Of a DNA stretch of 64,000 nt, positions 54,292 through 64,000 are shown piece after piece. The stretch lies in assembly GCA_012798115.1 (NCBI GenBank), contig JAAZNV010000007.1, positions 25,586-89,585 of the forward strand. Reading direction: 5' to 3'. The DNA is from a candidate division WWE3 bacterium (GTDB taxonomy: Bacteria > Patescibacteriota > WWE3 > UBA101185 > UBA10185). The stretch's first letter is position 1. Each line of letters starts with the position of its first letter. A model generated the notes under the pieces. That model did no database searches. It saw only the letters and a program-made list of their open reading frames with translations, and was not told the DNA's origin. The position numbers were made by a program, and so were the translations under genes.

Positions 54292-55002
54292 ATGTTAGTT
54301 TTCGATCCTAATGTAAGATGTAGTTCACTAATTAAAACAGGTGACTACATAGAGTCCTATCTTAAAGATACGGTTAATGTAAAGAGGTATATGGATTCAA
54401 GATACCCTGAAGGTATGGTTAGTGATAGGTTGTGTGATCATATTGTGAGATTAAGATTAATGGCTTTACATCTTCCCATGCCTTCTGAAGATAGAAAGCA
54501 AATCGATCGCATGATTATTGTGCATGATTTGCCGGAAATTGTTGTTGGTGATGTAACAGCAATAATAAAAAAAGAAAGGAGTTTAAGTACAGATGATGAA
54601 GTAGCTGTTGCAGAAAAAATGCTAAACGAGAGGGACTTTGCGTTATATAGCCAGTTTTCTCAAGCTGAAGACTATCTACTGGGCAACTCATTAGTAGCCT
54701 CGTGCGATAATGCTATTATTGCCAAAGTGTTAGATTCTCTTGAGGGTAGTATGTATTTTCACTACGCAATATCCAAATGGGCTAAAGCAGGTCAAATGCA
54801 ACTCCCACCAGGTTGCTCTATGGAATACTTCTTTGGAGTTGTCTTGGATGGATTTAAATGCAAGACGACAATCAAGCAAGAAACTGGAAACTTAGTTAAT
54901 GAACTGCTACTTTCTGCCTATAAGTACATTGAAAATCTGTGGGTTGGTTACGAACAAATAACCCCCGATGTGATTAAGAAAAGATTAAGTATGTATAAAT
55001 AA
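54292..55002 (+). CDS. HD-domain phosphohydrolase (YfbR-like 5'-deoxynucleotidase family)
   Basis: H...HDLPEIVVGDV HD motif; start at ATG 54292 after GAGGTGA RBS. Confidence 0.55.
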   Translation: MLVFDPNVRCSSLIKTGDYIESYLKDTVNVKRYMDSRYPEGMVSDRLCDHIVRLRLMALHLPMPSEDRKQIDRMIIVHDLPEIVVGDVTAIIKKERSLSTDDEVAVAEKMLNERDFALYSQFSQAEDYLLGNSLVASCDNAIIAKVLDSLEGSMYFHYAISKWAKAGQMQLPPGCSMEYFFGVVLDGFKCKTTIKQETGNLVNELLLSAYKYIENLWVGYEQITPDVIKKRLSMYK

Positions 55003-55016
55003 GGAGAGTGAACGAA

Positions 55017-55802
55017 ATGAAAATAATTCAACCTAAGGTATTTTTGATCGCCGAGCCGCATATTATGCGAGGTGAACTAGGCGAGTTTTTGAAACTTGTA
55101 GGTGCTCCGGAATGGCATACAGATGCTTCCTCAGACGCTGAGGAACTTTCGGAACTAATGGGTCGTGTGTGTTACCGAAGCTTTGCTCCCGGATTGAACC
55201 CGAATGTTACAAAAATTCGTGAGGGTAATGCACCTTATCTTGCAAACATAATTGAGCAGGAACACGGTTCAATTTTTGAACACTCACAACTTAGTTTCGT
55301 CTTTGCAAATATTTCAAGAGTGTTTACACACGAACTTGTTCGGCACCGTGTAGGTGTTGGAATCTCACAGGAAAGCCTGCGATATGTTCGTCTTGATAGT
55401 CTATCAGCGAGTATTCCAACGATAATCCAGGAAACTCCGGAAGCAATGACGATCTTCACAAGGACTTTTGAGTATCTTGAAAAACAACAGCGTGAACTTT
55501 CACAGGTCTTTAAGCTGGATAACCCGGAAACATCTTTTCACCAAAAGAAAAGAGCCACTTCGGCTATGCGAAGAATTGCGCCCATTGGTCTTGCTACATG
55601 CATTGGTTGGAGCGCCAACTTTCGAACTCTGCGTTGGGTATTGGAAAACAGAACACAACCAGCAGCCGAAGAAGAAATGCGCATAGTGTTTGGACAAGTT
55701 GGGGAGATTGTCACCAAGAGATACCCTAGCATCTTCTCTGATTTTACAGTTGAAAAAGTTGAAGGATTTGATTGGTATAAACCAGCTCACAGAAAAATTT
55801 AG
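55017..55802 (+). CDS. thyX: flavin-dependent thymidylate synthase ThyX
   Basis: ThyX motif RHRVGVGISQESLRY (RHRxxSxxxxSxRY); start at ATG 55017 after AAGGAGAG. Confidence 0.85.
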   Translation: MKIIQPKVFLIAEPHIMRGELGEFLKLVGAPEWHTDASSDAEELSELMGRVCYRSFAPGLNPNVTKIREGNAPYLANIIEQEHGSIFEHSQLSFVFANISRVFTHELVRHRVGVGISQESLRYVRLDSLSASIPTIIQETPEAMTIFTRTFEYLEKQQRELSQVFKLDNPETSFHQKKRATSAMRRIAPIGLATCIGWSANFRTLRWVLENRTQPAAEEEMRIVFGQVGEIVTKRYPSIFSDFTVEKVEGFDWYKPAHRKI

Positions 55803-55807
55803 TTATA

Positions 55808-55846
55808 ATGCCCGGATATTAAATAAAATCCGGGCATTTCTTTTTG
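55808..55846 (+). terminator. Rho-independent terminator after thyX
   Basis: 10-bp stem ATGCCCGGAT/ATCCGGGCAT followed by TTTCTTTTT. Confidence 0.7.
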
Positions 55847-55970
55847 ATAATTATCTAGCACAAACTTTATGGAGACGTTATTGGTACGATTAACAACCTC
55901 TATACTTACCTACTCTACAAGTTACTGGGTTGCGCAGTTGGGGTTAAGTTGGAACTGTTATAAACTCTAG

Positions 55971-56516
55971 CTATACCAGCAAATAATTCCACCCAGGTTT
56001 CCATGACTTTGTTTTTCTCCAATCTTGATTGAATGCTTCCTCCCAAGTTTTTCCTTTAAGAATAACCTCGAGTGCTAATTGAGGTGCCCTGTGTGCTACT
56101 ATTGCCACATTTTTTCCATCGTACTTTTTCTCTAACTCATTAAGGAATATCTCCATCCTCAATTTAACATCCTCGTAGCTTTCACCATTGGGAAATCTTT
56201 CTGTAATACATTTTTCCTGAATAGGTTCTACAATTCTGGAGGGCATTCCGTTGTAATCTCCGTAATTACATTCTCTCAACAACCACTCTTTAATAATTGG
56301 TACTCGATCTTTAAATGTTATTTCCGCTGATTTTACTGCTCTTTTGAGGTCAGAACAAAAGACTACATCAAACTTCTTGTCTTTTATTTGCTTCCTCAAA
56401 TCTATCGATTGTCTTACCCCTTTTTGTGATAACTCCGCATCCGACCACCCAGAGGAAACGTCATTTAGATTATCATTAGTAGTTCCATGTACAAAATATG
56501 TAATGTTTACTGACAT
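55971..56516 (-). CDS. histidine phosphatase (phosphoglycerate mutase-like) family protein, atypical VHG in place of RHG
   Basis: YFVHGTTNDN N-terminal motif and C-terminal VAHRAP; catalytic His present, conserved Arg replaced by Val. Confidence 0.55.
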   Translation of the reverse strand: MSVNITYFVHGTTNDNLNDVSSGWSDAELSQKGVRQSIDLRKQIKDKKFDVVFCSDLKRAVKSAEITFKDRVPIIKEWLLRECNYGDYNGMPSRIVEPIQEKCITERFPNGESYEDVKLRMEIFLNELEKKYDGKNVAIVAHRAPQLALEVILKGKTWEEAFNQDWRKTKSWKPGWNYLLV

Positions 56517-56606
56517 AGAGTAATTATACCTTGGTTCTAGATTGGTTGAAAAAGTACACAGGTTGAGAACTATTTTACACTCTAAGTTATTTAGAGAAAA
56601 TCCAAC

Positions 56607-57107
56607 TCACTTCCAAAGTGACTTAGAGCCTCTTTTAGGTGAATTTAGCCACTCTGCGTACATTATATCGTAGAACCAGTCATCAACGAATTTAACCTCT
56701 TCTTCTGCTAATGCTTTCCAATCTTGTTCTGGGTTCTTTTTCTCAGCCGTGTATACTGCAAGCTCCTTGAGTTTTTGCAACCTTTCCCCTTCCTGAAGGT
56801 TATATTTAATTGACGCCGTTACCCTGCCTATATTTTTTAGCTCCATCCATCTGTGCTGGTATGCTAGCTTAAGGGCATGCGCCTTCCCACCGGCAAAGGC
56901 TTTTTCTAAATTATCTCTTGTAATAAGTCCTGCAGCATAATCTAGAGTCATTTGTGATTTTCCAAGCTCCTCTAAAGACAGACATGCTAGAAAAAAAGCT
57001 CTCGCGAATCGTTCGTTTTCAGCTAATAATTTAGCCTCTAAAAGCAGATCTAGGGCGTTATTACGTGCCCTATTTGCTATACTCTCATAGTTTAGTTTAG
57101 TGCTCAT
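56607..57107 (-). CDS. AbiV-like abortive-infection family protein (HEPN-like)
   Basis: ARAFFLACLSLEELGKSQ resembles AbiV family core (FLA..A.EE.GK); start moved to internal Met after implausible hydrophobic leader. Confidence 0.4.
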   Translation of the reverse strand: MSTKLNYESIANRARNNALDLLLEAKLLAENERFARAFFLACLSLEELGKSQMTLDYAAGLITRDNLEKAFAGGKAHALKLAYQHRWMELKNIGRVTASIKYNLQEGERLQKLKELAVYTAEKKNPEQDWKALAEEEVKFVDDWFYDIMYAEWLNSPKRGSKSLWK

Positions 57108-57538
57108 GTAGTCATTATAATCTCTAAGATATAAAATGAGATAAACAAGACAGTAAAAGATTAAAATTAATGTAGTCACGGTGGTTAAATTTATTTTTGC
57201 AAATTAATAATAGTGGTAATATTTGCCTATGGAATCCACCGCTAGTACTATGCTTACGGATGCTATAATATCTGGAGCTATTCAAGCGGTTTACTTTGTA
57301 GCAACAAAACTTTGGTATCTATGGGTATCTGCTATCATTATTATATTCTTCGATATTAAATACTCAACTCAGCCGCGTAAACGTAAAATTGTACGATTAA
57401 TAGTATTGGCCCTTCTGTTCGTTTATTGCTTTATCATTATCTATGTTCCATATATCCAGCGCCACTATTTTGTTAAATGAAGTTTCATCAAGCTGTCAAA
57501 GGATATTTGAGGCACAGAGGTCACTTAGGTGCCCTGTA

Positions 57539-57621
57539 TGGTGGGCGAGAGAGGACTCGAACCTCCACCCTTTCGGATACGGTCCTAAGCCGTACGCGTA
57601 TGCCAATTCCGCCACTCGCCC
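57539..57621 (-). tRNA. tRNA-Leu (anticodon TAG), class II with long variable arm
   Basis: acceptor GGGCGAG/CTCGCCC, anticodon loop CTTAGGA, T-loop GGTTCGAGTCC, encoded CCA. Confidence 0.85.
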
Positions 57622-57672
57622 TAGGTTATTTGATTATATTAAAAAGAGGCTCATATTACGAGCCTCTTCTTG

Positions 57673-58239
57673 TTAACTAGCAAATTGAACTTCAGATCCT
57701 GCTTGCCTGAAGCTATCAATCTTATTAATAAAGAAAGTAACTCCATTTCTCCAGTTAATATAGTTTGGAGGTGTATAAATAGGAGCTATCTTCTCAGGAG
57801 TATCAAGTCCTTTCTCAAGGTAGTTTTCTTTTATACCTTTTGCTACTGTCTCAATAGCTTCATCATAAGATTTAAAGTAAATTGCATTATTTCCATATAT
57901 ACCCCATCCAAATGGATTATATGAACCTTCAATTAATTTCTTTCCGCAAGAAGACTCCATACAAGAAATAGCAGGTAATAGTTTATAATCAAGGCTATAC
58001 TTATCTGCTACGTCAACAAATGTTTCAGCATTGGCTTTTAATGGAGATTTAAATTCATCAAAAAACTTCTCCAAAGCTTCTATTCTATCTTTTCTACTTC
58101 TTTCTATTTGTCTATCTAGAACTTCTATAGAAACCTCATTTTGCTTGCTTTTAGCAGCAACATTGGATGTTGCAGTTGCAAGATAAACAAGGATAAATGG
58201 TAGTATATTAACTTGTAGTATTAGACCTTTCTTAGTCAT
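57673..58239 (-). CDS. secreted GH73-like (FlgJ/AcmA-type N-acetylglucosaminidase) peptidoglycan hydrolase
   Basis: signal/anchor; AISCMESSCGKK (cf. GH73 AxAALESGWGKS), YNPFGWGIYG (cf. NNLFGIK), FKSYDEAIETV, YTPPNY (cf. YATDPNY). Confidence 0.5.
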   Translation of the reverse strand: MTKKGLILQVNILPFILVYLATATSNVAAKSKQNEVSIEVLDRQIERSRKDRIEALEKFFDEFKSPLKANAETFVDVADKYSLDYKLLPAISCMESSCGKKLIEGSYNPFGWGIYGNNAIYFKSYDEAIETVAKGIKENYLEKGLDTPEKIAPIYTPPNYINWRNGVTFFINKIDSFRQAGSEVQFAS

Positions 58240-58310
58240 ACAAGGGTAAATACTAACATAAAATTAATGTTTTATCAACTGCTATAGGATGAGAGAAGAA
58301 TGAGGTTTGA

Positions 58311-59171
58311 TTAAATTACAGTAAGGTAAACACCTGCAATTATCAAAATTGAAGCAACAATCTTTTTTAAAGGATCTTTCTTTTCATTCATAAAAATATA
58401 GGAAAGCAGTACATTTAGAAATATTCCTACTGCTTGAAGAGGTACTATGGTGGTAATTTTACCTAATTGAAAAGATCTTAAAGAAAAAATAATTAAAAGT
58501 CCCCAACTTAAGCTCATTAACCAACAGTATTTTTTGTTGCTAAGTTTATACTCAGTCAAAAGTTCTGAGGGTTTAATTCTTTCAGCAGCTAGAATAAACA
58601 TTGAAGGAACTATTAAAGTAATAGCTATATAGATAGGAAGGTTAAACTGAGGTGATATTCCAATATCTATAGATACTGCAATTGCATAGGCTATAGTTGA
58701 TAGTATTCCCATTACAATATACTTGTTTATTTCAAATTTATTTCCTTTGTACAAGACAATGAAGTTACTAAGAAGTATTAAAACTCCTCCAACCATTTTT
58801 AATGGTGAAATAGACTCATGAAAAACAAGAAGCCCTATTATTATTAGAAAGACGCTTGAAAGTTCCCCAATTATAGATATCAACGATACTTCAATATGTT
58901 TTCTTGAGGTGGTTTGAAGTCTATCGTTTATTGCATAGAAAATGCAAGACACCAAGAGTAGTATTACCGTTCTTAGACTAATTGAAAAATTGTATTTAAA
59001 CAAAGGAGATATAAGTAACAATATAAGCCCAGCCATCATCTGTAGCATTGCCGTAACAGCCCCATCATTTTTTGCATTCCTTACAGCTAGTTTATAAAAA
59101 GGAGCAAATATAACTACACATAGCAAATAAGCAACTACATTAAATTGCCAAGTGTTTACCAGATTAAACAT
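58311..59171 (-). CDS. EamA/DMT-family transporter
   Basis: 286 aa, 10 TM helices in 5+5 arrangement. Confidence 0.55.
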   Translation of the reverse strand: MFNLVNTWQFNVVAYLLCVVIFAPFYKLAVRNAKNDGAVTAMLQMMAGLILLLISPLFKYNFSISLRTVILLLVSCIFYAINDRLQTTSRKHIEVSLISIIGELSSVFLIIIGLLVFHESISPLKMVGGVLILLSNFIVLYKGNKFEINKYIVMGILSTIAYAIAVSIDIGISPQFNLPIYIAITLIVPSMFILAAERIKPSELLTEYKLSNKKYCWLMSLSWGLLIIFSLRSFQLGKITTIVPLQAVGIFLNVLLSYIFMNEKKDPLKKIVASILIIAGVYLTVI

Positions 59172-59178
59172 AGTTTAT

Positions 59179-59976
59179 TTAATTGCTTTCTGGACTTTTG
59201 TAATTTTTTATAATATCTGCAAAATGATTTACTCCTTCACACCATGATCCATCAGATGGTGGTGTATATGTCTTCATTATCTCACATGTGTTTGTTATAC
59301 CTTTTGAAAAAAACTTAGTTGAAAGATACTTTGATACAGTTTCTATGCCTCTTGCCCAGTTGTCAAATGAAAATGTTATATCTCCATACACTGCCCACCC
59401 CCATGCATTATATGTTTCCATCCCATTTACCTTGGGAGTGTTTTTTCCACAGCTTGATTCTTGAAAAGCAATGGAAGCTACTAACCACCATGGTATATTG
59501 TTTTTATCTGCTTCATACACAAATACATCTCCCATTCCTTCAAGAGGACAATTAAACATTTTAAACACTTCATTTATCTTTTGAGCTCTTGAATCTTTTG
59601 AATAAATTGTTGTTGTTGATTGTGAAAGAACAAGAGGTCTAGATGAATAAATAGCATATTTTGTTGTGTCTTGTGGCTTAGCCTTTTGAGGAGTAACCAT
59701 TAAGGTTATTAAGAAAGAAAATATAAAAACTACAGAAACAGAAGCCCATACTGTAGTTACATTTTTGCTTATTGTATTAGGTTTTATTCTTGACTTAACT
59801 TTTGAGATTAAACTTTCTTTAGTTAGAGTGATTACACTTGTAGATTGTATTTCAATAAGTGAGGTTAAAGTATCTTTTTTACGATTAGTCTTTTCCAACC
59901 ATTCTTTTTTAGGTTCTTTTAGTTTTAGCTTCTTGCCATTTTTATAGAAACATTTTCTAGAAATACTTGATTCCAT
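59179..59976 (-). CDS. membrane-anchored GH73-like peptidoglycan hydrolase (paralog of 57673..58239)
   Basis: ASIAFQESSCGKN, YNAWGWAVYG, FDNWARGIETV, YTPPSD blocks shared with paralog. Confidence 0.5.
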   Translation of the reverse strand: MESSISRKCFYKNGKKLKLKEPKKEWLEKTNRKKDTLTSLIEIQSTSVITLTKESLISKVKSRIKPNTISKNVTTVWASVSVVFIFSFLITLMVTPQKAKPQDTTKYAIYSSRPLVLSQSTTTIYSKDSRAQKINEVFKMFNCPLEGMGDVFVYEADKNNIPWWLVASIAFQESSCGKNTPKVNGMETYNAWGWAVYGDITFSFDNWARGIETVSKYLSTKFFSKGITNTCEIMKTYTPPSDGSWCEGVNHFADIIKNYKSPESN

Positions 59977-60291
59977 ATTGTTAGGTTACATTACCATATG
60001 TATTAAAAATTATTCAAGATGACAAATGTACACACTGCGAATGAATAAATTAACCGCCTTTGGTAAAGAAAGGCAGCTACTTGTTTTTACTTGTACATAT
60101 GCATATTTATACCAATTTCTTTTATCTTTTGACACAATGTATCAGATAAGTTTAAAAGTTACAAAGGTTTAAAGCAGAAATACGTTAACTGATTGGTCTA
60201 AATATTTTTTATTAACCTGCGTTAGCAGATGGTATTTATAGTTCCCAGCACCTACTGCGTTTTTAGCAACTGGTACACCACCTACAAGACT

Positions 60292-61377
60292 TTATCCTGT
60301 TATATTAAGCAATTGTGGAAAGGAGTATACATTTGGTCTGATTCCTGACCCTTTTTCTTCTAGATTTATAACAATACTGGTTAACTTTCTTAAAATATCT
60401 TTTGCAGTACTATCATTAATTTTAGTTTGTCTAATGAACTGAGATGTATTGAAATATGGATAAGAGAATATAAAGTCTAGAACTTTAATGTTATATTTTG
60501 AATTAGTTAGCCGGGCAATCTCTTCTTTTTTCTGGTTGTATAGTAAGTGGATACCTTTGGCTTTCTCAATATTAATTTGTGATTGTTCAATTACTGCACG
60601 TAAAAAGTAAGCAATCCAGCTATTCCAATCTCCTTTTTGAGAAATGTTAAGTAATTTTAGATAATATTCATCTCTGTTCCTTTCAAAGAAGGAACTAAGA
60701 TAAAACATTGGAGTTGAGAGTACCTTCTTGTAGTATAAGAACAATGGCATTATTATTCTTCCCACTCTACCATTGCCATCCCAAAACGGATGAATAATTT
60801 CAAATTGAGCATGGATAATTGCTAGTTGAACCAATGGATCTTTTTCCTCTATGTGTATATATGACTCAAAATTAGAAAAATACTTAGGTACTTCCTTCGC
60901 TTCAGGAGGAATAAATTTAGCCTCTTGAATTGTGGTACCTGCTTTGCCTATATAAACTCGCCCAGATCTAAACTCACCTAATATACCTGTGTTGGACCTC
61001 ACATCGGATAGTAGTATTTTATGAATTTCTTTTATAAGTCGAGCACTTAATGGTATTTCATCTAGTTTAGATGTTGCATACATTAAAGCCTTACGGTAGT
61101 TTAGTACTTCTTTTATATCTTCCCTCTTCTCTTCGAACTTCTTAGGATTTGCTTCATACTCCAATACCTCTTCTAAGGATGCTTGTGTTCCTTCAATCTT
61201 TGACGAAACAACAGCCTCTTGAGTAGTTAACGGAGATAACAACACTTTGGGGTTTGGGATTCCCTGGAGTAGTCCATCAAACTCTGCTATTCTAGCTCTA
61301 GCATTTCCAATAAGAGGTATAAATTCTACCCAATTCAAATCTTTAAGCGGAAGATTTTCTGGCATGAAAGCTTGCAT
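60292..61377 (-). CDS. Fic-family protein (class II, N-terminal SxxxEG inhibitory motif) with C-terminal wHTH-like region
   Basis: Fic motif HPFWDGNGRVGR; N-terminal VSSKIEGT inhibitory-helix motif. Confidence 0.85.
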   Translation of the reverse strand: MQAFMPENLPLKDLNWVEFIPLIGNARARIAEFDGLLQGIPNPKVLLSPLTTQEAVVSSKIEGTQASLEEVLEYEANPKKFEEKREDIKEVLNYRKALMYATSKLDEIPLSARLIKEIHKILLSDVRSNTGILGEFRSGRVYIGKAGTTIQEAKFIPPEAKEVPKYFSNFESYIHIEEKDPLVQLAIIHAQFEIIHPFWDGNGRVGRIIMPLFLYYKKVLSTPMFYLSSFFERNRDEYYLKLLNISQKGDWNSWIAYFLRAVIEQSQINIEKAKGIHLLYNQKKEEIARLTNSKYNIKVLDFIFSYPYFNTSQFIRQTKINDSTAKDILRKLTSIVINLEEKGSGIRPNVYSFPQLLNITG

Positions 61378-61464
61378 ATGCCAATTGTATCATTTTCGGA
61401 TTTGACAAGGATATAAACCTCTTGGTCGAATCTGGAAAGCGATTGGCATATCATCCTTACCGTG

Positions 61465-62112
61465 CTACTTTGTTAGTTGCATTTTGTTTAAGAATTCGTT
61501 GAAATCATGCTTTGGCAAGACTTTCTCTACTTGATCTAAAAACCCTGATAAGTCACTGTTTAGGTAATACTCTAAGAAAGTGTCTATTCCTAATGTGTCT
61601 ACCACTTTTGCTAGTTCTGCTGTTTCAGTACTATATGCTGTCATTATTGAATAAACAGAGCTTTTGCTCTCCAAAGTACTTACAATGTTTCTAACAATAG
61701 CAGAAACCTTAGGTTTTATTTCCTTGGAGTTTACAGGCCCTATATCTTTTAAGAATGGGGTAGCAATTTCTGTTAAGAGTGTAGCAGCTACTTCATCGAT
61801 GTTTTTAGGTATAACATTAATATATAAATCTAAATCCTTTTCTTTTTCTTCCTTAATACTAAAACCATGAGCTAAGTACTCCTTTTCTTCTCCCATTTCG
61901 TCTAGCATTCTAATCGTCCTTCCTTTGGTAATAGCATGCATGATCTCATGGGTAAGAAAACCACCAGACTTAATATTTACTTGGTTTTCTATAACATTTG
62001 TTTCCTTGTTTGTTATTCCCTCGTTGCTATACTCAAGTACTATTGTTGAGGGCTGTTCTTGTTTGTTTAAGATTGTTACTGCTGCTATATTTGATTCAAT
62101 AGGGTTAACCAC
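61465..62112 (-). CDS. hypothetical protein with HExxH zinc-metallopeptidase motif
   Basis: GGFLTHEIMHAITKG; 215 aa; directly upstream of Fic gene in same orientation. Confidence 0.4.
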   Translation of the reverse strand: MVNPIESNIAAVTILNKQEQPSTIVLEYSNEGITNKETNVIENQVNIKSGGFLTHEIMHAITKGRTIRMLDEMGEEKEYLAHGFSIKEEKEKDLDLYINVIPKNIDEVAATLLTEIATPFLKDIGPVNSKEIKPKVSAIVRNIVSTLESKSSVYSIMTAYSTETAELAKVVDTLGIDTFLEYYLNSDLSGFLDQVEKVLPKHDFNEFLNKMQLTK

Positions 62113-62123
62113 CCCATGGTGTT

Positions 62124-62660
62124 TTAGATATCAGGGAAGCTACTGCCATCTAGAACAAGAACTTTTATGTTCTTCTGGTTAGGTGAAAGTTTAATATCAA
62201 ATATATTTTCTATTGTGTTAATCTTCTTGTCACTTTCTTCTTGTACTTTTTCTATTGCTAATGTTAAGTTGTTCTTACATCTTTCATAGATGTTCCAGGC
62301 ATAGAGCGGATCTATGCTAATCTTCTTGGTCTCTTCTTTTATTATTGTGTTATAGATATGCCTATTGTTCATCCTATCAAATGTGATTATCTCGTCTGAA
62401 AGTATATAAGAAAACAAGTCTTTATCCTCAAAGCCACATCTTGATATTCTAAGTAGTTTATCCGTGCAAGTAGCTATATTTGGCCATAGTAAAGATTCTT
62501 CTTTATCTTTCTTAAAATCTTCAAATCTTTCACTAAATTTCTTATAATCTGCTCTAGATTCCTTCTTTATTACTTCAGTATTCCTTCCAATAGGAAAGCT
62601 GTCAAAGCTATAAAGATCATTAGAAATTGGTAATTTTTCTGAGTTGCTTATTCCTTTCAC
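62124..62660 (-). CDS. hypothetical protein
   Basis: 178 aa, first gene after tRNA-Pro, 11-nt gap to HExxH gene. Confidence 0.35.
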   Translation of the reverse strand: MKGISNSEKLPISNDLYSFDSFPIGRNTEVIKKESRADYKKFSERFEDFKKDKEESLLWPNIATCTDKLLRISRCGFEDKDLFSYILSDEIITFDRMNNRHIYNTIIKEETKKISIDPLYAWNIYERCKNNLTLAIEKVQEESDKKINTIENIFDIKLSPNQKNIKVLVLDGSSFPDI

Positions 62661-62724
62661 AATAACAATTATAGGTGTGTATCTTTTTACTACAATAAGT
62701 AGATTGTTTAAGAGATGATGTTTA

Positions 62725-62801
62725 TGGTCGGGGTGACAGGACTTGAACCTGCGACCTCACGGTCCCAAACCGTGCGCTCTAGCCAACTGAGCTACACCCC
62801 G
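62725..62801 (-). tRNA. tRNA-Pro (anticodon TGG)
   Basis: acceptor CGGGGTG/CACCCCG, anticodon loop TTTGGGA, T-loop GGTTCAAGTCC, encoded CCA. Confidence 0.9.
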
Positions 62802-62829
62802 TATTTTAGTATTCTACTATAAAAACAAC

Positions 62830-63516
62830 TTAAAAGAAGTTGATCCACTCATTTAAGATAATATCAAATGGATTTGACTCATATTCATCTCTAACATTAT
62901 GCATAAGATCAATGACATGTACTTTTACTGTATAAGTGCATAATTGATCTTTAGAACAAATTGGAGTTATGCTGTCCTTCTTGCTAATATTTCTGGAAAA
63001 CTCTGAAATTACAAAAACATCATTATCAATGAAGTAAGCTCTATCAAAATAACAATTTGCTCTTACTGAACAATCAAGAATTCTTGCATCAATAATCTTA
63101 TCTTCTTTTAGCCCATATAATCTTACTTGATTTGAAAGGATGTCTTCCCTATCTATGTTTCTATAATCTACAAAAATTTTTTCGCTTGGAGAAAATGCTA
63201 CTTTTTTAATATCTTTATGAGCATTAATAACACTTTCAAATTCTTCTTTTTTTCCTATCTCGTCAATAGAACTTACTGTCATCCATGTAGTATTATAGAT
63301 TTCGTTAGATTCTTTTAGTTTAAATTCATCTGCTTCTATATTTAATCCCTTGTTCTTTAAATTAGTAATCCATCTTTGAAACATCCTGTCATTTTCAACA
63401 TCAGTAGGAAGTTTTGATTTATCAACTGCTTTTTCTTGCTTTATATTAGAAAAAACTCCAATTGCTATGGATGTGAATATTAAAACTATAATTAAAACAT
63501 CAATATGTTTCTTCAT
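62830..63516 (-). CDS. membrane-anchored hypothetical protein
   Basis: track ORF starts at TTG; first Met gives MKKHIDVLIIVLIFTSIAIGV signal-anchor. Confidence 0.4.
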   Translation of the reverse strand: MKKHIDVLIIVLIFTSIAIGVFSNIKQEKAVDKSKLPTDVENDRMFQRWITNLKNKGLNIEADEFKLKESNEIYNTTWMTVSSIDEIGKKEEFESVINAHKDIKKVAFSPSEKIFVDYRNIDREDILSNQVRLYGLKEDKIIDARILDCSVRANCYFDRAYFIDNDVFVISEFSRNISKKDSITPICSKDQLCTYTVKVHVIDLMHNVRDEYESNPFDIILNEWINFF

Positions 63517-63581
63517 ACAGTAATAATACCTCATTGATAGTAAGTGTTTAAATTCCAAGTTATAATTTAGGTACAATATCA

Positions 63582-64000
63582 ATGAATAGAATGCTTGAAC
63601 ACATAGAAAGAAAACTACCTTTAGCAGAGCTTGTGTCCTTGCTTTTGTTTCTTGTTTTTGTTCCCTTAATACAAAAAGTAAATTTTATGCAAAATGATGA
63701 TTGGAATAGAACCACCAGCGTAATTAGGTTCTTACATGGAGATTTTTCTTTAATTCAAAAAACAGCAACTACTTTTTACACTCAAGGAATTTTAGGGTGT
63801 TTGTTTTCACTTGTCTTTGGATGGAAGAAGCTTCCTTTTTTAACCTTATTATTTTCCGTCTTAAATTTTTACTTATTAATGAAGATACTGCTGAATCATT
63901 CTAATCTAAGTAAAATAAAATCTTGTATCTTGTCTCTTCTTTTATTTTTTACTCCTCTTCATATGTATTCATCAATTGGATTTATGACAGAAAACTATAC
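63582..64000 (+). CDS. integral membrane protein, partial (runs off window)
   Basis: ATG 63582, frame open to window end; hydrophobic segments LVSLLLFLVFVPL, GILGCLFSLVFGW, LLFSVLNFYLLMKILL. Confidence 0.4.
   Translation, partial: MNRMLEHIERKLPLAELVSLLLFLVFVPLIQKVNFMQNDDWNRTTSVIRFLHGDFSLIQKTATTFYTQGILGCLFSLVFGWKKLPFLTLLFSVLNFYLLMKILLNHSNLSKIKSCILSLLLFFTPLHMYSSIGFMTENY

Follow-up and report, generated by a model that had tools for sequence, protein, structure and literature searches.

Does the gene block immediately downstream of a tRNA-Pro gene in this candidate division WWE3 bacterium encode a multi-gene defence system, or do its members merely share an address? The initial annotation of the 64,000-nt stretch of DNA analysed here (hereafter the window; coordinates are those of the window, and the tRNA-Pro, HExxH, Fic and d265 genes, their motifs and the hairpin described below lie on its minus strand) described a tightly spaced triad behind the tRNA, comprising an unknown protein, an HExxH protein and a Fic enzyme, and likened it to toxin/antitoxin or phage-defence layouts at a classical island integration site. 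The elements of that description were all recovered where they had been placed: tRNA-Pro (anticodon TGG; 62725..62801; ARAGORN, and Rfam RF00005 at 69.5 bits), ORF1 (178 aa; 62124..62660) 64 nt downstream of it, ORF2 (215 aa; 61465..62112) after a gap of 11 nt, and the Fic gene (361 aa; 60292..61377) after another 87 nt, together with the motifs HEIMH, SSKIEG and HPFWDGNGRVGR. A scan of 55–64 kb against Rfam returned nothing beyond two tRNAs. Three co-oriented ORFs are thus present downstream of tRNA-Pro, but they amount to two genes, and we regard it as likely, with good confidence, that these are functionally independent neighbours in a variable stretch of a WWE3 (Patescibacteria/CPR) chromosome.

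ORF1 and ORF2 lie in different reading frames and are the N- and C-terminal halves of one HExxH gene (61465..62660), about 398 aa long when intact and broken here by a 1-nt deletion. An exhaustive phmmer search retrieved a 398-aa protein (P0002) that consists of ORF1, the linker LKHHG and ORF2, and DNA alignment (A1) with two near-identical contigs (L001, L002) locates the lesion at 62124..62127, where these relatives read ATCTTAAAA and the window reads ATCTAAAA: one T is absent between 62127 and 62126, creating a TAA stop at 62126..62124. This T is the sole difference from L001 across a 3.9-kb tract (62294 to 58410) that is otherwise 100% identical. The intact 398-aa gene is found in L001, L002, L009, L010 and L011, and the intact allele in all other same-species contigs examined, which were drawn from other metagenomes; no second record of the split allele was found. 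Homologues in three other lineages are likewise single proteins (P0007, 412 aa; P0003, 366 aa; P0004, 403 aa). Since the two ORFs are halves of one gene, the block comprises two genes, one of them interrupted, and the triad's '178-aa unknown' and its 'HExxH protein' collapse into a single entry. The deletion itself reflects either an error in the assembly or a null mutation of very recent date.

An exceedingly improbable alternative is that ORF1 and ORF2 form a true split gene, the two polypeptides acting jointly or independently, or being rejoined by programmed frameshifting. Both ORFs have kept a codon usage resembling that of real genes in the window, ORF2 has a GTG start only 11 nt past the ORF1 stop, and a −1 slip at ATC-TAA would restore the ...PDILKHHG... 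peptide. However, every other allele and every homologue is a single ORF, and with nothing else differing over 3.9 kb the lesion is either so young that selection has not yet acted on it or an assembly error. Programmed frameshifting in particular was rejected, as the site lacks an X XXY YYZ slippery heptamer and all other alleles are in frame.

The Fic gene encodes a SoFic-type class II AMP-transferase, in which Fic_N is followed by the Fic core and by a C-terminal, winged-helix-like domain resembling that of SoFic. The protein matches the PADLOC SoFic model PDLC03963 (E = 1.3e-113, model positions 7–357 of 361), Pfam Fic_N (E = 5.6e-27, residues 22–102) and Pfam Fic (E = 5.6e-22), the SoFic structures 3EQX, 3ZCN and 9TC4 in the PDB (E about 1e-37, residues 18–354) and phrog_5978 (E = 3e-82); the Pfam SoFic-like_C model taken alone gives a weak match (E = 9.5e-4) under its gathering score. 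Because it reaches 197 bits against the NCBIfam SoFic equivalog NF046030, for which the cut-off is 550 bits, we class it as a SoFic-family homologue and not as an orthologue of S. oneidensis SoFic. The active-site motif HPFWDGNGRVGR (60757..60792; Fic residues 196–207) is the canonical HxFx(D/E)GNGRxxR with its catalytic His, and a regex search located SSKIEG (61189..61206; Fic residues 58–63), of the inhibitory-helix type (S/T)xxxE(G/N), inside Fic_N and N-terminal to the Fic core, where it aligns with SSRIEN of the Fic structure 9VJC. In agreement with the initial annotation, the protein is thus a class II enzyme whose active site is intact and whose inhibitory motif lies in cis. It has homologues in 1287 plasmid and 60 phage records; our scan of viral contigs found no close relatives.

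In Fic enzymes the His of the active-site motif catalyses the AMPylation of a target protein, with ATP as the donor. In the protein described here, the His of HPFWDGNGRVGR would move AMP from ATP onto its target, the N-terminal SSKIEG helix would, through its Glu, keep the enzyme auto-inhibited in cis, and phage infection would release its toxic AMPylation. SoFic is a named, standalone, single-gene anti-phage system (Millman et al. preprint) that is toxic via AMPylation, and at least one E. coli homologue has a small antitoxin as its neighbour (PMC12249575); the anti-phage phenotype is known only from experiments on E. coli homologues (Millman et al.; PMC12249575). By homology to these experimentally tested proteins, the Fic gene is most likely a stand-alone abortive-infection gene.

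The interrupted gene belongs to a family that we recovered from four lineages only in searches covering 1.84 billion representatives and 5.8 billion clusters, the homologues from the other three lineages being 74%, 28% and 26% identical and 366–412 aa long. Searches of metagenome and viral contigs for further loci of the family yielded the same species or none, and two other products of the exhaustive search (P0005, P0006) were rejected as compositional matches to short E/K-rich stretches in proteins of more than 1000 aa. The HEIMH motif (61936..61950) spans ORF2 residues 55–59, or residues 238–242 of the intact protein, and H238, E239 and H242 are invariant in all four lineages at 26–74% identity (alignments A2 and A3). 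Given this invariance, and a chance expectation of about 0.006 occurrences of HExxH for a protein of such composition, the motif is not fortuitous. Gluzincins combine HExxH with a downstream Glu that acts as a zinc ligand. An Asp-Glu pair, D289–E290 in intact-protein numbering (61792..61797), lies 47 residues past HExxH in invariant columns of A2, A3 and A5, on a predicted helix (residues 103–122) of a low-confidence C-terminal domain model, and is a candidate for the third zinc ligand. Since both HExxH and the downstream Asp-Glu are invariant, the protein is, as judged from its motifs only, most likely a gluzincin-type hydrolase that depends on zinc.

Beyond these motifs, the protein has a helical N-terminal domain of about 180 aa and is soluble, with no hydrophobic segment suggestive of a membrane span. 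The initial annotation had proposed an HMM check against families such as ImmA/IrrE, DUF955 or WLM, but none of these fits: no member of the family matches ImmA/IrrE (M78), DUF955 or WLM/SprT in Pfam, NCBIfam, PHROGs or PADLOC, and comparison of ORF1, ORF2 and the intact protein with the same four collections produced no consistent family match of any kind. Nothing consistent emerged from Pfam at E values up to 10 with all four family members, nor any relevant chain from a sequence-profile search of the PDB with the family alignment. AlphaFold2 models (four-sequence input) reached a pLDDT of 44 for the full-length protein and 54 for the C-terminal domain, and fold searches with these two low-confidence models gave no usable match. 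The family is very rare, lineage-restricted, uncharacterised and 'dark'. Its distant members are found adjoining genes for NUDIX proteins.

Whether the HExxH and Fic genes belong together can be judged from the sister species (L007/L008), in which the HExxH protein is 74% identical. There the order is tRNA-Pro, HExxH, d265, EamA, d188 and tRNA-Leu, without Fic and with a 149-aa unknown gene at the Fic position. The d265 gene, which encodes a 265-aa protein of weak glucosaminidase/endolysin-like similarity, lies in the window at 59179..59976. By blastn, L007 9934–11195 corresponds to window 62717–61467, L007 11262–11312 to 60171–60120, and L007 11697–14307 to 60132–57534, while no part of L007 matches 60172–61466. 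Because this 1.3-kb segment (60172..61466), which holds Fic with short flanks, is missing from the sister species, it represents a single-gene indel, either a gain here or a loss there. A terminator-like hairpin 3′ of Fic (60051..60079) lies within sequence common to this Fic-less relative. We also considered a 41-aa ORF downstream of Fic (60010..60135) as a putative AS1-like antitoxin; it is unconserved, lies outside the Fic indel and overlaps the hairpin, with a stop interrupting the matching position in L007.

Wider sampling tells the same story. Fic was not found near the distant HExxH homologues (L003; L004–L006), nor did the 8 kb around the anchor gene contain it in any of 13 related genomes, and no HExxH gene accompanies the Fic homologues on the three plasmids inspected, whose neighbourhoods are mutually unrelated. 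The adjacency of the two genes is circumstantial, with no sign of an operon-encoded system, because Fic occupies an indel, downstream of the HExxH gene, that the window's species alone carries. Within the species, co-transcription or a local functional link may exist.

The strongest form of such a link would be a two-gene toxin/antitoxin-like or defence module in which the metalloprotease regulates Fic, for example by clipping the inhibitory N-terminal helix on sensing phage or by serving as an antitoxin or sensor like ImmA/IrrE. Proteases of the ImmA/IrrE type control partner proteins. In every same-species contig examined, the HExxH and Fic genes sit side by side in the same orientation with 87 nt between them, and the recently homogenised 3.9-kb identical tract includes them both; the toxicity of SoFic and the small antitoxin beside an E. 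coli homologue mean that SoFic partner genes do exist (PMC12249575), and the NUDIX neighbours of the distant HExxH homologues are nucleotide-handling enzymes too. We nevertheless consider such a module very unlikely. HExxH occurs without Fic both in the same slot of L007/L008 and elsewhere among the distant homologues, Fic lies in a clean single-gene indel, and SoFic-type proteins act as single genes (Millman et al. preprint) with the inhibitor in cis. Moreover, HExxH is frameshifted here and Fic is intact, a loss that an essential antitoxin would not tolerate. A possible trans inhibitory motif in the HExxH protein, TNVIEN, was rejected, as it is conserved in neither P0003 nor P0004. The defence-like character noted in the initial annotation holds for Fic, with its full-length PADLOC match to SoFic; the HExxH protein has no PADLOC match and is not a conserved partner of Fic. 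A broader version, which we think very unlikely, is that the HExxH protein represents a new, rare zincin-like family paired with an adjoining nucleotide-transferring or -hydrolysing enzyme (Fic here, NUDIX in two distant lineages), the protease licensing or reversing a SoFic-type toxin; if true, this would be a previously unrecognised conflict module of protease and nucleotide enzyme.

The tRNA-Pro gene follows the up250 gene wherever the latter falls within the fetched locus (L012, L016, L017, L023, L024), and L014 and L018 contain it as well. The d265 gene occurs in 13 related genomes at 48–89% identity, followed in each by d188, with tRNA-Leu(tag) after d188 in 10 of the 13, that is, in all whose contig reaches far enough. 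Between them lies a slot of 0.4–5.3 kb holding unrelated cargo in L012–L024; tRNA-Pro forms the conserved upstream boundary, and d265 the downstream boundary, of a variable slot. Synteny comparison next to tRNA-Pro, as proposed in the initial annotation, thus confirmed presence/absence polymorphism: among the relatives, Fic is found in the slot of the window's species only, and HExxH in that of the window's species and its sister only. A HEPN AbiV gene is located 3 kb away, inside a strain-specific insertion, which fits a neighbourhood prone to defence genes.

Such variation, with a block that begins 64 nt from the tRNA and, in L007, an extra 155-aa gene directly after it, would fit a tRNA-targeted genomic island of the classical kind, in which an integrative element occupies the 3′ end of tRNA-Pro and carries all of the genes as its cargo. 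That origin is highly improbable here. Neither in the window nor in any relative does the slot contain an integrase or recombinase, and the 3′ end of tRNA-Pro is not directly repeated anywhere in the 9 kb from 55000 to 64000. In GC content the slot does not differ from the remainder of the window, and its codon usage resembles that of host genes. HExxH and Fic have different presence/absence histories, and in other species the slot mostly carries genes for metabolism or the envelope (NAD kinase, PGA_cap, VIT1, ABC ATPase). What survives of the proposed island site is a slot whose content changes between related species, and not the signature of integration.

An apparent three-gene system thus resolves into a frameshifted gene and a known single-gene defence element, which saves follow-up effort on the triad. 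CPR genomes have few defence genes, and it is possible to trace how these are gained and lost at single-gene resolution. The locus adds one more SoFic-type defence candidate, with AbiV nearby, to a small CPR genome. The rare HExxH family is truly 'dark', with four lineages among billions of proteins and no tie to function at present; SoFic is already known as a named defence type.

Comparison with characterised systems places each gene more precisely. The HExxH protein resembles gluzincins (thermolysin-like M4, FtsH M41, ImmA/IrrE M78) in carrying its invariant HExxH on a predicted helix and, 47 residues on, its invariant Asp-Glu in the next long predicted helix; it differs from them in that profile searches link it to no family of Pfam, NCBIfam, PHROGs or PADLOC and to no PDB chain, in its 180-aa helical N-terminal domain and in its restriction to four lineages. 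With the class I modules FicT/FicA and VbhT/VbhA, the locus would share a toxic, AMPylating Fic protein and a co-oriented upstream gene, small in those modules. In class I, however, the small antitoxin supplies the (S/T)xxxE(G/N) helix in trans, whereas here the helix is in cis (class II) and the upstream gene encodes a 398-aa HExxH protein without a conserved inhibitory motif. The closest likeness is to SoFic itself (S. oneidensis, PDB 3EQX/3ZCN; E. coli homologues, Millman et al. 2022). The present protein differs in its host, a CPR/WWE3 bacterium, in having no recognisable AS1-like small antitoxin beside it, and in its identity of about 30% to the solved structures (estimated by eye from the alignment). 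It nevertheless has the same full-length architecture, HxFx(D/E)GNGRxxR and the cis (S/T)xxxE(G/N) are common to it and the known proteins, and it lies in a variable region as a single-gene insertion, as expected of a stand-alone defence gene.

Downstream of tRNA-Pro(tgg) (62725..62801, minus strand; also supported by Rfam) lie three open reading frames on the same strand: ORF1 (62124..62660, 178 aa) and ORF2 (61465..62112, 215 aa, with HEIMH at 61936..61950), both with GTG starts, and a Fic ORF (60292..61377, 361 aa), with the Fic motif HPFWDGNGRVGR at residues 196-207 and SSKIEG at residues 58-63. The initial annotation described these features accurately, and GC content and codon usage in all three frames are like those of the remainder of the window. 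What had been read as three genes, however, is two: ORF1 and ORF2 are a single gene carrying a 1-nt deletion. In a word-indexed search ORF1 had no matches and ORF2 matched only itself ('hypothetical protein GYA37_02270, candidate division WWE3 bacterium'). An exhaustive HMMER search of 1.84 billion representatives retrieved P0002, a 398-aa protein from the window's species, residues 184-398 of which are 100% identical to ORF2, while its N-terminus is ORF1 with six substitutions, joined to the ORF2 part by the linker LKHHG. The two frames differ within the window, and DNA alignment with two near-identical contigs of the same species (L001 and L002) revealed one absent T, the relatives having ATCTTAAAA and the window ATCTAAAA. 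The TAA stop at 62126..62124 results from this missing T, and from 62294 to 58410 (3.9 kb) the deletion is the sole difference between the window and L001.

The two frames are unlikely to be a truly split or recoded gene, since the intact 398-aa gene occurs in every other same-species contig examined (JGI, ENA, Logan) and the split allele is on record nowhere else; nor is the frameshift site a slippery heptamer. The split reflects either a null mutation of recent origin or an error in the assembly. Another single-T indel against L001 lies at 57568, inside tRNA-Leu(tag) (57539..57621; 83 nt in the window, 84 nt in L001), and the two indels together may hint at single-base errors in the window's assembly, although 83-nt versions of this tRNA were found in other species too. 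The stretch 58410..62294, 100% identical to L001 bar the deletion, has flanks that are 1-2.6% divergent, with 14 substitutions crowded into the 5' 340 bp of ORF1 (62294..62633). The pattern points to a tract that recently recombined or swept, its boundary probably falling within the HExxH gene.

Just four lineages of the HExxH family are known: P0002 is from the window's species, P0007 (412 aa, 74% identity) from a sister Patescibacteria MAG, and the distant members P0003 (366 aa) and P0004 (403 aa), at 26-28% identity, from Logan assemblies. Scans of metagenome and viral contigs gained no more members. Each is one long protein, none with a hydrophobic segment. In alignments H238, E239, H242 and D289-E290 are invariant across the family, and HExxH would be expected by chance only 0.006 times in a protein of such composition; these invariant residues are, as predicted from sequence, the signature of a gluzincin-type zinc hydrolase. 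The protein was not assigned to ImmA/IrrE, DUF955 or WLM, the families suggested in the initial annotation, nor to any other in Pfam, NCBIfam, PHROG or PADLOC, and it had no sequence match in the PDB. AlphaFold2 models, built with just four sequences, were poor (pLDDT 44 and 54), and fold searches gave no usable match. It is only by its motifs that the protein is classed as a putative zinc metallohydrolase. Directly beside each distant homologue lies a NUDIX hydrolase gene (L003, 2438-3109; L004, 4106-4597, and also L005 and L006). In L003 it forms a fusion with an NrtR-type winged helix, and a weak kinase/DnaJ-like protein is encoded next; these are two independent observations, too few to weigh.

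Could the HExxH protein and Fic form one system, as had been proposed? In the species with the 74%-identical protein (L007/L008) the order is up228 (the gene upstream of tRNA-Pro), tRNA-Pro, a 155-aa gene on the opposite strand, HExxH, a 149-aa gene, the conserved 265-aa gene d265, EamA, the 188-aa gene d188 and tRNA-Leu(tag). By blastn the HExxH gene and its downstream flank are collinear with the window, and nothing corresponds to 60172..61466 (Fic and short flanks); the 149-aa protein shows no relation to Fic. Fic is likewise missing near the two distant HExxH homologues and within 8 kb of d265 in all 13 related genomes, among which the HExxH gene occurs only in L012, the same genome as L007. 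The HExxH gene is thus common to two sister species, Fic sits in a single-gene indel in one, and the two have separate histories; such an indel is the behaviour expected of a stand-alone defence gene. Within the window's species the genes are always adjacent and may be co-transcribed, but a functional module is very improbable given HExxH loci without Fic, inhibition of Fic in cis, SoFic working as a single gene and a frameshift that is tolerated. The 155-aa gene (L007, 9212-9933), directly after tRNA-Pro, and the core of the 149-aa gene (L007, 11313-11696), in the position of the window's Fic, are small lineage-specific inserts with no family match.

The suggestion of an island site at tRNA-Pro held in part. 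Anchored on d265 (59179..59976, minus strand) in the 13 related genomes, tRNA-Pro precedes it in all seven loci extending far enough upstream (the upstream gene up250 preceding the tRNA in five), d188 follows in 13/13, and tRNA-Leu(tag) follows d188 in ten. The slot between tRNA-Pro and d265 is variable between species, from about 0.4 kb in L017 (where Ns are present) and 1 kb in L016 up to 5.3 kb, with cargo including NAD kinase, DUF3160 and PGA_cap, VIT1, an ABC ATPase and uncharacterised proteins. A classical tRNA island is nonetheless disfavoured: no integrase was found in the slot in the loci examined, the tRNA-Pro 3' end is not repeated in the window, and the HExxH and Fic histories are discordant. 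The genes flanking EamA, d265 and d188 (57673..58239), are paralogues (32-36% identity, reciprocal tblastn) with weak glucosaminidase/endolysin-like similarity. The window's real strain-variable islet beside a tRNA is a 2.74-kb segment (54759..57498) adjoining tRNA-Leu(tag); L001 and L002, elsewhere 98-99% identical to the window, have ~63 bp in its place. Encoded there are a ThyX-like protein (55008..55802), a histidine phosphatase (55971..56516, minus strand) and, ~3 kb from the block, a HEPN AbiV abortive-infection protein (56607..57179, minus strand; Pfam E=2e-15), the last lending mild support to a defence-prone neighbourhood.

Fic matches Pfam Fic_N and Fic, phrog_5978, the PADLOC SoFic model over nearly its full length (E=1.3e-113) and, over residues 18-354, the solved SoFic structures 3EQX, 3ZCN and 9TC4 (E about 1e-37). 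Because it scores 197 bits against the NCBIfam SoFic equivalog, whose cut-off is 550 bits, we class it by homology as a SoFic-family member, not an orthologue. Mobile DNA often carries homologues, with 1287 records from plasmids and 60 from phages; the best plasmid match, at 46.7% identity, is on a conjugative plasmid of Novosphingobium. Of the plasmid neighbourhoods, three were inspected: they had nothing in common with one another, and none contained an HExxH gene. Read by eye, the gap upstream of Fic (61378..61464) has no obvious Shine-Dalgarno sequence but a TACAAT box 6 nt before the ATG, with TTGTCA ahead of it, an arrangement hinting that Fic may have a separate promoter and perhaps leaderless transcription.

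The block is largely known biology, a candidate SoFic-type single-gene defence beside a frameshifted orphan HExxH gene; its obscure part is the tiny HExxH family alone, whose function is readable at the motif level only. SoFic, a Fic-domain protein, was reported to provide defence on its own (Millman et al. preprint), and a later paper describes a toxic AMPylase that works through abortive infection (PMC12249575). By homology and from established Fic biochemistry, His196 would catalyse the transfer of AMP from ATP to a protein target, and the cis inhibitory helix, through its Glu62, would hold activity low until relieved; toxic AMPylation would then abort infection. In E. coli H397 a 47-aa antitoxin, AS1, is encoded downstream of SoFic (PMC12249575), whereas the sole co-oriented small ORF downstream of the window's Fic is 41 aa (60010..60135); this ORF is not part of the Fic-specific segment, overlaps with a terminator-like hairpin and is interrupted by a stop at the corresponding position in the Fic-less relative.
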